The notes beneath the pieces are model-generated. The model saw only the letters and a list, made by a program, of their open reading frames with translations, did no database searches and was not told where the DNA came from. The translations under genes and the position numbers were made by a program. Shown piece by piece: positions 17,632-58,283 of a DNA stretch of 64,000 nt. This stretch comes from an archaeon (GTDB lineage Archaea > Thermoplasmatota > Thermoplasmata > Methanomassiliicoccales > Methanomethylophilaceae), in the NCBI GenBank assembly GCA_024399155.1, contig JAKSHX010000001.1:33116-97115 (forward strand), written 5' to 3'. Every line of letters begins with the position of its first letter. Position 1 is the stretch's first letter.

Positions 17632-19791
17632 ATGAGTATAAATAAAAAGAATTCCGATGGCTCTTATAGTCAGTTTGCTGGTATGCCATATGTTACTAAA
17701 GACAATATTGGATTAAGTAAAGTTGAGAATAAGAACTCAGAGGATATCAGAGGTGAAATCACCTCTAAGAATATAAAGGACGCATTAGGATATACACCAG
17801 CTAATGACGTAGACGAAAAGAAATCTCAGAATGATATAGCAGTTCTCTCTTCAAGAATGGATGGGTTTACAAAGCTTGGCGAAGGTAGCACAACTGGAGA
17901 CGCAGAGCTTGAGGATATAAGAGTTGCGTATGATGGTAAGACATATAGTAACGCCGGAACAGCAGTACGTTCTCAAGTTTCAGACCTTAAGGAAACTATG
18001 GACACGATTTCTGATGCGTTATACATCGACAACGTAACAGATGACAAGACTACATACAATAGTGATACAATTGGTAATGTACGACTTTTTCTTGCAACAA
18101 TTGCAAATGCGTGTACAGTTGACTTATCGGTTGGATATAACGCATCGTATGATGATTTTACAATTGTCATTGAGTTATGGCACAAGTCCGGTAGTGATTA
18201 TATTAAGTATGCGGAATACAGAACAACGACAATTAAAGGGGAATCAACTGCCAACATCAAAAAGATTTCCGCTGAAGCAGATACATACATCACTGTTAAG
18301 TCGGAAAATGCGAGTGGCAGCAAGCCATTTAGATATGGATTATATGCTGATGCTCCGAAAATTAGAGTGTCAAATACATTAACGGGAAATGTTATATCAG
18401 ATGCAAGAGACACATCTATATCTGGATATTGCTGTTATAAGACTGTATGCTACAATCTTTTTGATGTTTCAGAAATCAGCGAAGCAGCAAACGCAGCTTT
18501 AACAAAGTCAACAAATCTCGAATCTGAAGTTGATGAAATCAAAGATACGTTATATACAGAAACTGAAGAAGATAAACTGTCATATAACGAAAACTCTGCA
18601 AATAATGCAAGAGCTTTTATTGCAAAAGCGAATGATGGATGTGTGTACTTATCTGTTGGATATAATGCTGTATATGATCCTTATGATCTCGTTGCGGAGC
18701 TCTGGCATAAAAACGGGAATTCTTACACCAAGTATTCCGAAAAATCTGTAAGAACTCAGAAAAGTGACGGGAAAGGTATTGCAGATTTCGAAAAAATTGA
18801 AATTTCTGGCGAAACATACATATCAATTACAGCACGAAACATTACCGGATCAAAACCGCTGCTTTACAGCGAAGATGCCGCTGCGCCATATCTTACTGTA
18901 TCGACATCACTTGACGGAGATACAGTTACAGTTAAGCAGACATCAATACGAGGATACTACAGTTACAAGATCAAAAAGATCGAATCTAAGGCAACTGCAA
19001 AGAAAACTGCATATATCGTCGTTGACATTAACGGCAATGGAGATTATGACAACCTCAACGCAGCCATTAATGATAATGCAGAAGGTAAAGTAATATATCT
19101 GATGCCGGGCACATACGAGGTCGAACCAATCCGAAGCGGTGACAAGGCAATAAGGATTATCGGAACAGACAAGACAGCTTGTAAGATTGTCAACTACGAC
19201 GGTCGTTATAGATATCCTCCAATTGAGGTCAGCGTAGGTTATTTCGAAAACATCACAATTGCTGCGGAATATGTTGAGGGAAAATCTCAGGAAATCGGCA
19301 CTGGTCAGGGCGCATATGCAGTACACGTTGAAGACGAATTTTCGAAAGGAAAAACTCTTGAATTCCATAATTGCGTATTATATTCCGACTTTTCATGTGC
19401 AATCGGAATTGGTTTGAGAAAGGAACAGACAGTAATACTTGATAATGTGACAATGGAAAATGCACAGATTGTCGGCAGAGGTATATATACTGATAACGGA
19501 TCATTAGGTGCGCTGGTATTTCATGACAGCATCGGCGAAGGCGGAAACAGTTACATAACAGTTAAAGATTGTCTGCTGAAATCATCACTTGGAAATTCAA
19601 TTGCACCGAGCTGGACGGGAAATCCTGAAAGCGGCGTAAACAAAGTATATTGTACATTTATCAACAATACTTTATATGACAAGATTCACAGGTATAGCAA
19701 CAACGTGTGGCTAAGGAATAACCCATTTGAAAATGGATTTGAATTTGATGTTGCTTACGGAAACTCAGCTTCAGAGCTTAACGATAATTAA
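17632..19791 (+). CDS. Tailspike / receptor-binding protein 2 with beta-helix (pectate-lyase-like) C-terminal domain
   Basis: Shares the anchor motif ELEDIRVAYDGKTYSNAGTAVRSQVSDLKETM with RBP1. Two internal homologous about 230-aa modules (..VELWHKSGSDYIKY.. / ..AELWHKNGNSYTKY..). C-terminus TAYIVVDINGNGDYDNLNAAINDNAEGKVIYLMPGTYEV is typical of right-handed beta-helix depolymerases. Confidence 0.75.
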   Translation: MSINKKNSDGSYSQFAGMPYVTKDNIGLSKVENKNSEDIRGEITSKNIKDALGYTPANDVDEKKSQNDIAVLSSRMDGFTKLGEGSTTGDAELEDIRVAYDGKTYSNAGTAVRSQVSDLKETMDTISDALYIDNVTDDKTTYNSDTIGNVRLFLATIANACTVDLSVGYNASYDDFTIVIELWHKSGSDYIKYAEYRTTTIKGESTANIKKISAEADTYITVKSENASGSKPFRYGLYADAPKIRVSNTLTGNVISDARDTSISGYCCYKTVCYNLFDVSEISEAANAALTKSTNLESEVDEIKDTLYTETEEDKLSYNENSANNARAFIAKANDGCVYLSVGYNAVYDPYDLVAELWHKNGNSYTKYSEKSVRTQKSDGKGIADFEKIEISGETYISITARNITGSKPLLYSEDAAAPYLTVSTSLDGDTVTVKQTSIRGYYSYKIKKIESKATAKKTAYIVVDINGNGDYDNLNAAINDNAEGKVIYLMPGTYEVEPIRSGDKAIRIIGTDKTACKIVNYDGRYRYPPIEVSVGYFENITIAAEYVEGKSQEIGTGQGAYAVHVEDEFSKGKTLEFHNCVLYSDFSCAIGIGLRKEQTVILDNVTMENAQIVGRGIYTDNGSLGALVFHDSIGEGGNSYITVKDCLLKSSLGNSIAPSWTGNPESGVNKVYCTFINNTLYDKIHRYSNNVWLRNNPFENGFEFDVAYGNSASELNDN

Positions 19792-19862: not shown

Positions 19863-20278
19863 TGCACAACGTAAAAACAAATCGTCACCCCGTAAGCGTT
19901 CAGGGTGACTGGCTATGAAACGCATATTTGAATCAAGGCAGATATGCGTGAGCCTTATATGGTTTGCAGATATCCAAGCTTGATGTAGGCTTCGGCTGAA
20001 AGAAAACTGCGGTGATTACTATAACTGACGATTGATGTCGGTTATGGTATCACAAATTATTTGGCTGACGAAGCCACAGATGCGCCCCGGCAGAGTTTAC
20101 TGTGTCAAGGAGAATGTGAAATCTAAATAAACAGACGCTGACGAGTGTCTTGAGATATGCGAGCAAGATTTCCGCACCGCAGTTTGTGCTTGCATTATCA
20201 ACCCAATGTAAGGCTTGGTCTTACTCATTATCACCGCAGTAACGGGTCAAGGTAGCCTTGCGAGGTTGCCAAGATATA

Positions 20279-24025: not shown

Positions 24026-25195
24026 TTAAAATAAATTATTGAGCCTAGCCACCTCAGATGTGGATTTTTCTTCTGTTAAATGAGTATAAATATCTAGTGT
24101 TGTTTTTACACTCTTATGCCCCATCCTATACTGAACATACTTAACATCAGAACCATTCATTAATAACTTAGTACAATGTGTATGTCTAAGACAATGAGGT
24201 CTAAAGACTTTTAAACCTTCATGTTTATATCTGTCCAGAAGATTGTGAACAAACTTCTGTGTAAGAATCTCGCTATCGATCTTTGATACCACAAAGAAAA
24301 AAGGATGGGTGTCATGTTCGGTGTCAGCCTGGGAGTCATATAACTCAATTGATTTATCGAGATTCATGATGTAAGACTTAGCAGAAGGATACTTCATTTT
24401 TCTTTCCTTGAGATTCTTAGCAAACTCAATAAATGTATCATCAAGGTCTATTTCTCTTACGCTGTCATACTTAGGCGATGTAAACCAAGACACTCCGTCT
24501 CTGCGAATAACCTGTCTGGATATAGTTAATTTTTTATTTTCAAAATCAATATCGTCCCATGTTATCGCAAGAGATTCGCTCAGCCTTAATCCACAATGAT
24601 ACCCGAGCATCAGCACAACCTCTAAGATATCACCTTTATATATCTTTTTAAATTCGTTTATCATAGAATCTGAGTAGTAAAAATTTGGATTGCCACGACG
24701 TTCAATAGTTTTAGGCGTTTTAGCTTCTTTAAACGGATTGTCGTTAATCAGCTTATGCCTAATCGCACATTCAAACATCATGTTGGATACGTTCTTATTC
24801 TTTCTTATAGTACTAGAAGCTAATCCTTCTGTTTTCATTTCAACAAGAAAATCTTGTGCAACATTCGTTGTAATATTACTAAGCTTGTAAACGCCAAGCT
24901 TTTTAACAAGATGTGCCTCTAATACTGCTTTGTAAGAAACGTATGTTGACCATTTTAATACATCTTGACATTCTTTAAGATATATGTCAGCAAAGTCTTT
25001 TACGCTTATATCTGAATCAGCAACGGTTCGTCCGCAATTATTATATTCTGCCAAAGCCTTGATGCCTGCAGCAAGAGCGTCTTTCTTGGTATCAAATCCA
25101 GACTTACAAACTCTTTGCCTCTTACCGTCAAGCTTTGCTCCTTCAAAATAATATTGCCATTTACTTCCACGTTTTCTTGCGTTTACTTCAGCCAT
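24026..25195 (-). CDS. int: Phage integrase (tyrosine recombinase)
   Basis: 389 aa. Boxes GLRLSESLAITWDDID (R), RPHCLRHTHCT (H-x-x-R) and RMGHKSVKTTLDIYTH (H..Y). N-terminal arm-binding/SAM-like region. Confidence 0.9.
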   Translation of the reverse strand: MAEVNARKRGSKWQYYFEGAKLDGKRQRVCKSGFDTKKDALAAGIKALAEYNNCGRTVADSDISVKDFADIYLKECQDVLKWSTYVSYKAVLEAHLVKKLGVYKLSNITTNVAQDFLVEMKTEGLASSTIRKNKNVSNMMFECAIRHKLINDNPFKEAKTPKTIERRGNPNFYYSDSMINEFKKIYKGDILEVVLMLGYHCGLRLSESLAITWDDIDFENKKLTISRQVIRRDGVSWFTSPKYDSVREIDLDDTFIEFAKNLKERKMKYPSAKSYIMNLDKSIELYDSQADTEHDTHPFFFVVSKIDSEILTQKFVHNLLDRYKHEGLKVFRPHCLRHTHCTKLLMNGSDVKYVQYRMGHKSVKTTLDIYTHLTEEKSTSEVARLNNLF

Positions 25196-56599: not shown

Positions 56600-56888
56600 A
56601 ATCGTAATCTAAATGAGATTTTCTCATCCATGTGGACATCAGAATTACCTGTTAGCTACCTCTCTTCAGTGGTTTATTCATGCGTTTTGACCTTCGTTCC
56701 TTAAACTTCCCACGGTTTTTCCACGTTCGTGATAGCTGATGTTCTTAACATCGCCTCGCCCCGTTAAGTTCCTGGATTCGAGCTATAGAACGCCGGGCTT
56801 GGGCAGCCTGATCGGCCCGTTCGTCCACTTATCAAATTGTTACTTCCATCTACGACAGAAGCGGTTAAAAACCAATTGCATTACGATT
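56600..56888 (-). ncRNA. Retron-type ncRNA unit 2 (msr/msd-like), downstream of the RT
   Basis: a2' AAUCGUAAU (56888-56880) pairs with a1' AUUACGAUU (56608-56600). A G follows a2'. The 5' 85-90 nt is homologous to unit 1, including the 33-nt block 56829-56861. The GC-rich unique 3' part carries helices GUGGAC/GUCCAC, AUAGCU/AGCUAU, GAUGUU/AACAUC and AUGAGA/UCUCAU. Confidence 0.6.
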
Positions 56889-56894
56889 GTTTTA

Positions 56895-58049
56895 TTATCC
56901 TCTCAGGTCTTCCTTCATCATATCTACGACGTTGACACCGAGTTTATTGTTTATTTTATGTATGATATTATCTATATGATCTTTCTCAACCATACGATAA
57001 TAGTTCCTGTATCCTTCAAGAACCTGAACTTCATTTAATTCCCACGACTTCCCGTTAAGCCTATCCATAGCATAGTTAAACAGCATAACAGCGAATCTCC
57101 GTTTCGCTTTGTACCCAATAGTGATTTCATTATCCTTATTGAGCATAACTCCGAGGTTCCAGTTAGAACCAGACGAAGAACCATACCTTGTCTTCTGACT
57201 CTTGATGTTGAACGGAGCTCCAAAACCATTAAGGCTTTCCTTAATGATTGACTCAATCTCATCCACATCAAAATCGTACTCAGAAGAAACTATAAAGTCA
57301 TCCGCATATCTTGTGTAAATATACTTCTGCTTATTATAATCCTTTAGCTTATTGGACAGTTCGTAGTCCACAGGAATCATAATTAAGTTAGTAATGAGCG
57401 GTGATATCGGTGTGCCCTGAGGAAGACCGCCATCCAGAAAAGCAAGGTTAATTGCGTCAGCTAACGCCTGTTTGCCTTCTTCATCCTTAACAACCTGAGA
57501 AAACGGGAATATCATTGAAAGCATTTTCATTGTATATTCTTCTGTTGTACTTCCGAAGAAGTTGCTCAGGTCATACTTAGCAAACCACTTGCTTTTATTC
57601 TGCTGATGTTTCTTTACCGCATCAAGAGTGCTTCTATTCTTTACATAAGCGAATGCTGCAGTGTGATATAAAGCCCCGAACTGTTCTTCAAATATCCTCT
57701 TAAGTTCCCTTAATGCTTCCATTAATTCTGGATTAGGGGCATCTATACGGCGAAGTCCACCACTTTTCTTTGGAATATGAAACGTATAATAAAGACTGGA
57801 ACGTTCAGCGTTCTTTAAAGCCTCATACTTTTCATTAAATGTCTTGAGCGTCTGGATTAAATGACGCACAGAAATCGCCCTTTTAAAATGCTTTGTAGCT
57901 TCTTCAACACAATACGTTCTTGTTGCTGTTGTGTTAGGAGCAGCTAAACCACCATACTTAGGTTCTTCGAATAATGTATCCAGATTAAGTAAATCATCAA
58001 GACTCATTTGATGATATGACGGACTCAATTTTACAACAATATACTCCAT
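56895..58049 (-). CDS. Reverse transcriptase, retron/DRT-like (stand-alone RT domain)
   Basis: FHIPKKSGGLRRIDAPNPELMEALRELK, YVKNRSTLDAVKKH, YDLSNFFGS, GLPQGTPISPLITNL, YTRYADDFIVSS, IKSQKT...NLGVMLN. ATG at 58049 with AAGGAGG; the track start (TTG 58079) lies inside the a1 arm. Confidence 0.85.
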   Translation of the reverse strand: MEYIVVKLSPSYHQMSLDDLLNLDTLFEEPKYGGLAAPNTTATRTYCVEEATKHFKRAISVRHLIQTLKTFNEKYEALKNAERSSLYYTFHIPKKSGGLRRIDAPNPELMEALRELKRIFEEQFGALYHTAAFAYVKNRSTLDAVKKHQQNKSKWFAKYDLSNFFGSTTEEYTMKMLSMIFPFSQVVKDEEGKQALADAINLAFLDGGLPQGTPISPLITNLIMIPVDYELSNKLKDYNKQKYIYTRYADDFIVSSEYDFDVDEIESIIKESLNGFGAPFNIKSQKTRYGSSSGSNWNLGVMLNKDNEITIGYKAKRRFAVMLFNYAMDRLNGKSWELNEVQVLEGYRNYYRMVEKDHIDNIIHKINNKLGVNVVDMMKEDLRG

Positions 58050-58069
58050 ATGTATCCTCCTTGTTATTG

Positions 58070-58283
58070 TTAATTGCAATCTTTGTATTCTTATACCTGC
58101 CTGACGGCGTTGCCCGCAGCCCTTGAGAACGCGTAAAACCTTACTTTGAAAATATTAAAAGCCTTTGATCGAAGCTCCTGAAATTCAGATCCACTTCCGC
58201 CTCACCCGATCGTGCCTTTATCAAATAGTTACTTCCATCTACGACAGAAGTTTTCTGTTACCAGAAAAATGCATTGCAATTAA
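58070..58283 (-). ncRNA. Retron-type ncRNA unit 1 (msr/msd-like), upstream of the RT
   Basis: a2 UUAAUUGCAAU (58283-58273) pairs perfectly with a1 AUUGCAAUUAA (58080-58070). A G immediately follows a2. Hairpins UUUUCUG-GUAA-CAGAAAA, CUUC-N11-GAAG, GAUCGGG...CUUCGAUC and GUAU-AAGA-AUAC. a1 ends 20 nt before the RT ATG. Confidence 0.65.

Follow-up and report, generated by a model that had tools for sequence, protein, structure and literature searches.

Does an RT (reverse transcriptase) gene flanked by two look-alike non-coding RNA (ncRNA) units, borne by a phage and with no recognisable effector beside it, belong to a retron that serves more than one template? Retrons are understood as bacterial systems in which an RT, one ncRNA and a toxin abort phage infection. 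The question is raised by a 64,000-nt stretch of contig JAKSHX010000001.1 (hereafter the window), in which an RT gene at 56895-58049 on the minus strand is accompanied by ncRNA units of the msr/msd type. An original prediction, made from the letters of the window and folded by hand, had described one such unit on either side of the gene. We examined the locus with profile, structure and comparative searches and found a third unit that had been missed. We propose, with a probability of roughly three in four, that the locus is a phage-encoded retron without an effector that carries an array of template RNAs, and that its one RT would give rise to several different multicopy single-stranded DNAs (msDNAs).

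The RT gene encodes 384 amino acids from an ATG at 58049. Its YADD box and motif-A aspartate are intact and are invariant across 23 RT homologs. A ribosome-binding site, AAGGAGGA, can be read from the sequence at 58055-58062 (-), between the a1 element of the upstream ncRNA and the ATG, and the spacing of a1, ribosome-binding site and ATG recurs at related loci. The best PADLOC match is RT_II-A (3e-46), all 25 listed best matches are retron RT models, and the best NCBIfam model is retron_St85_RT. A sequence search of the PDB returned the Ec83 RT as the best match (3e-22), and the ten best matches are retron RTs (Ec83, Ec78, Ec67 and Kva2), except for 8bgj, which is named just ‘RNA-directed DNA polymerase’. 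When an AlphaFold (AF2) model of the protein (predicted local distance difference test [pLDDT] 85.7) was submitted to Foldseek, the retron Eco7/Ec78/Ec83 RTs came out on top with template modelling (TM) scores of 0.72-0.79; Ec86 scored 0.71, an RT of a diversity-generating retroelement (DGR) 0.63 at rank 30, and a group II RT 0.53. An N-terminal extension of about 65 residues is specific to the family and is modelled in part with low confidence. Judged by its top matches in PADLOC, NCBIfam, PDB sequences and Foldseek, the RT is of the retron lineage. Pfam finds RVT_1 and no other domain, and no fused effector or extra domain appears in Pfam or in the AF2 model, in agreement with the original prediction of a retron-type RT that has no additional domain. 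Against a relative with a 99% identical RT, codon positions 1 and 2 have diverged by 0.5% and position 3 by 4.4%, and the gene is thus under purifying selection.

Other classes of RT were rejected. The group II intron RT model TIGR04416 scored 84.7 bits against a cutoff of 300, the fold similarity was the low value given above, and no group II intron RNA was matched around the gene by Rfam even at E≤5. The unknown group (UG), abortive infection (Abi) and defence-associated RT (DRT) classes fared no better, with 46.7 bits for Drt2 (cutoff 390), 33 for Drt3a (cutoff 200) and 20.6 for Drt3b (cutoff 350). The gene had been described beforehand as being in the retron/Abi/DRT style; the retron part of that description stands, and the DRT part falls with these low NCBIfam scores. 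In both profile and fold comparisons, group II and DGR enzymes match clearly less well than retron RTs.

The two ncRNA units next to the gene carry, as far as primary sequence and predicted structure can tell, the hallmarks of retron msr/msd RNAs. Unit 1 (58070-58283 (-), 214 nt) lies upstream of the RT gene and is backed by its fold, by a covariance model (CM) and by orthologs; all parts of the units given below are likewise on the minus strand. Its a2 element, TTAATTGCAAT (58273-58283), is the perfect complement of its a1 element, ATTGCAATTAA (58070-58080), an 11-nt segment that is preceded by AAAG and ends 20 nt before the RT ATG. Directly 3' of a2 is the putative branching G (58272), followed by msr hairpin 1, UUUCUG-GUAA-CAGAAA (58252-58267), and by the 9-bp msr hairpin 2, ACUUCUGUC-GUA-GAUGGAAGU (58231-58251). 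The variable part, the putative template (msd), spans 58081-58215. Unit 2 (56600-56888 (-), 289 nt) begins 6 nt after the RT stop codon, and is identified by fold, CM and homology to unit 1. It has a 9-nt a2, AATCGTAAT (56880-56888), a G at 56879, hairpin 1 at 56863-56873, hairpin 2 at 56842-56862, a variable part at 56609-56825, and a 9-nt a1, ATTACGATT (56600-56608), which is preceded by TTAG. In the predicted fold of each unit the a2/a1 stem closes the structure, with an unpaired G after a2 and then the two hairpins (z = -2.85 for unit 1 and -2.26 for unit 2 versus dinucleotide shuffles). CM R1 scored unit 1 at 49.2 bits (E = 1.7e-9), unit 1 itself being in the training alignment, and unit 2 at 47.5 bits.

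The two units are homologous over about 85 nt at their 5' ends, including a 33-nt block with 32 identities, and the two differences between their a2 elements are both compensated in a1. Orthologs of both units were found at three related loci (L161, L162 and L163). The variable parts of different units share no sequence, and those of units 1 and 2 have 47-48% G + C compared with 36% for the window. Realignment and computed folding therefore bear out what had been worked out by hand: the coordinates and motifs of unit 1, the placement of unit 2 right after the RT stop with its compensated stem, and the unrelated, GC-rich 3' halves. The original prediction was right in its other coordinates and motifs too. 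Rfam detected no family at the units, either at gathering score or at E≤5, and promoter and terminator scans gave counts no different from those in shuffled sequence.

Comparison across the family carries most of the argument. Searches of metagenomes gave 5130 relatives of the RT at E≤1e-20, of which the best 120 are 59-99% identical and 379-401 aa long, and at least 569 phage contigs in IMG/VR encode a relative. Most of the 80 IMG/VR loci that were kept sit on viral contigs of 50-140 kb, and the large phages that bear the RT inhabit gut and rumen communities. Copies also occur in ‘bacterial’ metagenome-assembled genomes (MAGs) assigned to unrelated taxa (Clostridia, Prevotella, Odoribacter and Alistipes), which are most likely mis-binned phage contigs; past the MAG copies, RT identity falls to about 30%. 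Among GenBank phages no DNA-level match was found, and the closest protein match is 42% identical.

The 5' blocks that units 1 and 2 have in common were made into a hidden Markov model (HMM), which was iterated over the fetched loci and picked up 250 unit copies, every one of them on the strand of the RT. With few exceptions they follow one layout, consisting of a private a2 of 7-19 nt, a G, two hairpins, a conserved AAYTTGA, a variable stretch of about 200 nt, xAG and the matching a1; the xAG is TAG in most copies and often part of ATGTAG. From related phages 215 distinct complete units were collected, with a median length of 297 nt. Their a2/a1 stems have a median of 10 bp, versus 5 bp when another unit's a2 is put in the same place. 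The first eight positions of the stem covary, for example T-A versus C-G beside the G, so that AAT-G occurs with AG-ATT and AAC-G with AG-GTT. There are 75 distinct a2 8-mers, and all of 105 diverse units have the G after a2.

The msr hairpins tell the same story. At E<1e-3, a CM of the msr made 182 matches in 82 sources, without exception on the strand that carries the RT. Over both hairpins, 87.7% of alignment cells are paired, versus 67.0% in column shuffles and 39-51% with slid partners; both sides have changed in 511 cells, and covariation is seen in 13 of 14 pairs. The alignment behind these figures was fitted to the CM, which favours structure, although the margin is wide, and covariation can be made out by eye when sequence alone guides the alignment. 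Owing to the variable length of hairpin 1, RNAalifold run on a MAFFT alignment recovered hairpin 2 just in part, a problem that the CM alignment solved. The covariation expected in homologous phages is thus strong in both the a1/a2 stem and the hairpins. On this comparative evidence, which we regard as decisive, the unit architecture is beyond chance, and the msr stem-loops appear structured, conserved and, by prediction, recognised by the cognate RT.

Is the presence of several units per RT also a property of the family? At least two units were counted in 71 and at least three in 50 of the 87 loci with adequate flanks, counts that include near-identical phages, are hence not independent and to that extent speak less strongly for an array. 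A typical array consists of a single unit 250-400 nt ahead of the ATG and a tandem pair directly behind the stop; some loci have extra copies 1-4 kb away, relatives have from two to five units in all, and the CM adds units at more divergent loci. Relatives whose RTs are 79% and 70% identical keep upstream and downstream units, so that both the a1/a2 pairing and the second unit are retained across the family. MT835544, the GenBank phage contig with the 42% identical RT, carries a single unit built on this plan, upstream of the RT, and a protein-coding gene follows the RT directly. Because this relative has just the single upstream unit, the array is, as far as the sequences compared indicate, a derived feature of the clade to which the window belongs.

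The third unit of the window (54803-55020 (-), 218 nt), identified by nhmmer, CM and its a2/a1 stem, lies about 1.6 kb downstream of unit 2, past five small ORFs and directly before tRNA genes. It has an a2, AAGTCAGTAAGCTTTTGTT (55002-55020), a G at 55001, hairpin 1, UUCUUGA-UUU-UCAAGAA (54978-54994), hairpin 2, GCUUCUGCU-GUU-AGCAGAAGU (54957-54977), and an a1, AACAAGAGCTTGCTGACTT (54803-54821), preceded by AAG. It was found at E = 1.7e-4 by nhmmer and at 30.6 bits by CM R1 (E = 3.9e-5, filters off). Its a2/a1 stem comprises 19 bp including two G-U pairs, with a minimum free energy of -86 kcal/mol. No exact match to its hairpin was obtained in IMG/VR. Further units were not detected in the window, where the next CM match after the three units had an E of 0.41 (filters off).

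These data bear on the idea that the downstream units are duplication scars, repeats resembling miniature inverted-repeat transposable elements (MITEs), or RNAs that are not reverse transcribed, such as regulators of RT expression, and that the upstream unit alone works. The most distant relative does have the upstream unit alone, and unit 3 is divergent and A + T-rich. Against this, the G is still invariant in downstream units, the two hairpins and the xAG-a1 junction are retained, and each unit has an a2 and a1 of its own that pair perfectly; compensatory changes run across hundreds of phages, with zero msr substitutions between close relatives; and all units sit on the RT strand beside the RT and are never scattered. 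Family-wide conservation, the strand bias, adjacency to the RT and covariation together rule out a local duplication scar or a MITE-like repeat. Non-functional downstream copies are strongly disfavoured, and we consider this whole explanation very improbable.

The retron array proposed here would work as follows. A single RT of the retron lineage would recognise the two conserved msr hairpins that are common to all units. Each unit would fold through its own a2/a1 stem and set the invariant G beside the template 3' end, at xAG; the RT would then prime from the 2'-OH of this G and copy the variable part of the unit. The products would be three different msDNA-type RNA-DNA molecules in the phage of the window and two to five in its relatives, and tandem units, each with a private a2 and a1, would be kept from pairing wrongly with one another. 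In engineered retron arrays (‘multitrons’), one RT does serve several arrayed ncRNA/msd units (10.1101/2023.07.17.549397), so that the design appears workable. By this analogy, the combination of shared msr hairpins and private stems fits one RT serving several templates, and we infer that cDNA is synthesized from the units.

What would be copied is the part of each unit that changes most. Between the window and the relative with the 99% identical RT, two msd parts have diverged by 8.1% and 14.0%, compared with 4.4% at RT third codon positions, and 0 of 206 sites have changed in the msr and a1/a2 (Fisher test, p = 3e-4 for msd versus third positions and p = 3e-9 for msd versus msr plus a1/a2). 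Among ten near-identical IMG/VR phages, the nucleotide diversity (pi) of the three msd parts is 0.24, 0.17 and 0.08; the corresponding values are 0.097 for RT third positions, no more than about 0.03 for the msr and about 0 for a1/a2. The msd parts are thus the fastest-changing DNA of the region between close relatives. The spectrum of substitutions is altered as well: transitions to transversions number 17:24 in msd versus 85:23 in the RT and upstream genes (p = 2.5e-5), and 105:65 versus 176:31 in a second set (p = 3e-7). Across the window (58081-58215 and 56611-56825) and related loci (L007-L015), flanking genes show ratios of 4:1 to 20:1 and the msd parts a ratio near 1. Substitutions are patchy, hit all four bases, and are in excess between sharp boundaries at the msr and a1. 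Adenine-specific mutagenesis of the DGR type was rejected, as the spectrum has no adenine bias. We also rejected a DGR identity for the locus, given the all-base spectrum, the rank of 30 for a DGR RT by fold and the lack of a second msd copy in the window and loci: no match of at least 16 nt to the msd parts was found in the window or in 160 loci, be it a duplicate, an antisense site or a variable repeat like that of a DGR. Within one phage, msd parts share no sequence between units.

The variable part does contain fixed islands, namely its first small hairpin, a central palindrome and the last 20 nt or so before a1. The palindrome, CCATTG-N5-CAATGG (or CCATTGAT-A-ATCAATGG), is present in 61 of the 215 units and lies some 95-115 nt inside the variable part (e.g., L007 4318-4344). 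It is invariant among close relatives amid changing surroundings and is absent from the three units of the window; it could be an RT stop signal, the tip of the msDNA or a protein-binding site.

Since the msd rate exceeds the synonymous rate and the spectrum is altered, relaxed constraint alone is insufficient, and the change calls for selection that favours diversity, for swapping of diverged cassettes or for a mutational process that acts locally. In engineered retrons, msDNA recombines into and edits its own msd gene (PMC11624263), which makes RT-driven write-back a concrete candidate for such a process; part of the rapid change in msd might then come from error-prone cDNA written back into its own gene. 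The same observation enters an alternative in which the phage uses the msDNAs in transactions of its own DNA, for instance as primers or as substrates for recombination, and the hypervariability of msd is a neutral by-product of write-back with no arms race behind it. Self-editing in the engineered systems, the sharp bounds, altered ratio and all-base nature of the excess substitutions, and the location of the locus in the replication and nucleotide-metabolism arm of the phage are all in keeping with it. Yet no target site is evident, the msd matching nothing else in the window or the fetched loci; the conserved islands, such as CCATTG-N5-CAATGG, point to selection on the product; and write-back leaves the upkeep of two to five units unexplained. 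We regard this alternative as distinctly unlikely.

We favour, with modest confidence, a role of the array in phage-host or phage-phage conflict, because there is no toxin, the locus lies among auxiliary early genes, the element is conserved in a large clade, and its templates diversify quickly. In the role that we infer, the msDNAs would be decoys or sponges made of nucleic acid and directed against host defences or rival phages. A more specific version, in which the array is a fast-evolving RNA-DNA counter-defence library that diversifies itself through write-back and is selected in an arms race with host immunity, is speculative and, in our estimate, rather unlikely; if true, such a library with built-in diversification would be mechanistically distinct from both defence retrons and DGRs.

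The genomic setting agrees with a phage-borne element, as had been claimed. The window is that of a tailed phage, with genes for a minor tail protein, a neck protein, DNA polymerase, DnaB, primase and anaerobic ribonucleotide reductase and with tRNA genes; relatives are on viral contigs of 60-156 kb. The retron locus belongs to the arm of this large phage genome that is devoted to replication and nucleotide metabolism, where its surroundings are early, auxiliary genes. The small ORFs next to it have no matches in Pfam, PHROGs, NCBIfam or PADLOC and belong to no defence or toxin family found there, and they are not conserved across the family, so that the earlier statement that no effector is recognisable stands. 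The neighbours had also been called small SH3-like paralogs. Their paralogy is clear: at least 14 small genes of 80-130 aa, between 56242 and 63971 (-), flank the RT locus and share the pattern VGDxV...Y.G...W... and a C-terminal SEEELLxLL tail, an expansion that is unusual in a phage. The SH3-like fold was matched just weakly; the one paralog modelled (pLDDT 83) resembles SH3-like/KOW-like small barrels, including NdhS, PetP, YorP, ribosomal L21e and Spt5 KOW, with a best E of 3.8e-3.

Other genes accompany the retron in relatives. A ThiF-like (E1-like) gene lies immediately upstream of it in 95 of 109 related loci and a JAB/MPN-like gene (HxH...S..D) in 87 of 109 (e.g., L002 1983-2654; L004 136-1170). 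This pair may be a ubiquitin-like conjugation/deconjugation cassette of related phages. By tblastn both genes are absent from the window, which rules the cassette out as an obligate partner. Downstream genes vary (RNase H, metallophosphatase, NAD-salvage genes, small paralogs), and nothing apart from the RNA units is linked to the RT in every lineage.

The same evidence decides how much weight is given to a classical defence or superinfection-exclusion retron, in which an unrecognised effector, an adjacent small ORF or a gene elsewhere, would be governed by msDNAs serving as sensors or antitoxins for different triggers. Defence retrons borne by phages or prophages are known, and orphan retrons may have effectors in trans (PMC7736814); many neighbouring ORFs are unannotated; and fast change in msd also fits diversification of sensors. 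These points are opposed by the lack of a syntenic gene across the family, the ThiF/JAB-like cassette being absent from the window and the downstream genes variable, and by the lack of both a PADLOC effector match and an effector domain fused to the RT. A tripartite retron defence system of types I-XIII in the Mestre scheme was rejected on the same grounds, as no linked effector was found and no gene is syntenic in all lineages. We consider a defence retron rather unlikely.

Several observations weigh against a retron array without an effector. The RT scored 173.3 bits with retron_St85_RT, below the curated cutoff of 235. NAxxH and VTG are motifs commonly taken as signatures of retron RTs, and here they are replaced by AVKKH and NLG; aligned to Ec83, LDNAKIHQ becomes LDAVKKHQ and hvTGVtL becomes wNLGVmL, and the family consensus at these sites is DAVKRHQ and NLGVMLN. 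Unit 3 is divergent, the weakest-scoring of the three, and A + T-rich in its variable part (31% G + C); no ortholog of it was found among the relatives fetched, and it could be decaying. Folding of the variable part versus shuffles is modest, with a median z of -1.05 and 18% of units below -2 in a subsample, and orthologous units lack the long conserved hairpin of a classical msd, having small conserved islands alone. An effector might be hidden among the small genes, many of which lack annotation, or might work in trans, and the counter-defence role is argued from context.

How does the array compare with known systems? The nearest RT profiles in PADLOC and NCBIfam are those of Type II-A retrons (Retron-Sen2/St85, Eco1/Ec86 and Eco3/Ec73), in which, as in the phage element, an ncRNA sits immediately upstream of the RT gene and combines an a1/a2 stem with a G that follows a2 and with hairpins in the msr. 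Unlike these, the phage element has several ncRNAs instead of one and no recognised NDT-like effector or DNA-binding partner; its RT falls below the family cutoff, has the N-terminal extension of about 65 aa and the altered NAxxH and VTG motifs, and resides in large phages. Type I-A retrons (Eco7/Ec78 and Eco4/Ec83) provide the best PDB sequence and fold matches (Ec83 at 3e-22; TM 0.72-0.79), but they use PtuA/PtuB-type ATPase and HNH effectors, neither of which was found here, and a single ncRNA. ‘Orphan’ retrons without an associated protein, which possibly use effectors in trans or serve some other purpose, have been described, e.g., on the Retron-Eco5/Ec107 branch (PMC7736814). They are alike in having an RT and ncRNA and no recognisable effector, and differ in being chromosomal, with a single ncRNA and an RT of another clade. 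DGRs are alike in that a phage RT is linked to a sharply bounded hypervariable DNA segment; in contrast to them, the present RT is not DGR-like, there is no pair of template and variable repeats and no adenine-specific spectrum, and it is the template itself that varies. In multitrons each arrayed unit makes its own RT-DNA, as is predicted for the phage array; they are synthetic, Eco1-based and intended for multiplex editing, whereas the phage array is natural, with private a2/a1 elements and units on both sides of the RT.

In the literature searched, coverage of which is incomplete so that a prior description is possible, we found no natural retron in which a single RT is accompanied by several ncRNAs. 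Nor did we find a description of this phage RT family there, including in the retron classification, census and multitron papers, with the same incomplete coverage. Surveys mention phage-borne retrons just as defence systems. The present family would place retron machinery in phages of the gut and rumen that form a large and widespread clade, with no toxin recognised and two to five templates per RT, a layout that points to phage-side use of retron RT-DNA beyond toxin-antitoxin defence. It would also be a natural precedent for retron arrays, which were previously just engineered, and may offer orthogonal a1/a2 pairs and a compact RT for multiplex production of single-stranded DNA. As a testable case of accelerated evolution that is locus-specific and tied to an RT, it bears on natural self-rewriting by msDNA and on the function of orphan retrons.

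Several other features were observed in the genomes analysed. In some relatives, the RT stop is followed after about 340 nt by an RNase H gene (Cauli_VI + RNase_H) that comes after a downstream unit (L167 11481-12113; L168 5852-6484), which is notable because retron RT-DNA reportedly depends on RNase H1 for its maturation (PMC8989520). A few kb downstream of the retron, relatives also carry NAD-salvage genes, namely nicotinamidase/NAD synthase, an NMN transporter and a NadR-like gene (L164 14913-15644; L167 14926-16678), whose presence fits with counter-defence functions in this arm of the genome.

In the window itself, a polynucleotide kinase/phosphatase/RNA ligase fusion of 755 aa is encoded at 51539-53806 (-) (PHROG RNA ligase, 4e-223). 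It adjoins genes for tRNA-Asn, tRNA-Met and tRNA-Gln, directly downstream of unit 3 (see also 53889-54485 (-)), and the fusion and tRNAs together look like a tRNA-repair/replacement module against anticodon nucleases. Rfam gives a borderline tRNA match at 54180-54251 (30 bits versus 29), where ARAGORN makes no call. A 389-aa ORF at 24026-25195 (-) matches a PHROG integrase family (2e-68); in other respects the phage has the look of a large, replication-autonomous one. Finally, the ‘drum RNA’ family RF02958 is matched by Rfam at 19910-20014 (+), with 53.3 bits versus a gathering score of 43 (E = 3.7e-7), just downstream of the block of structural genes that ends at 19791.

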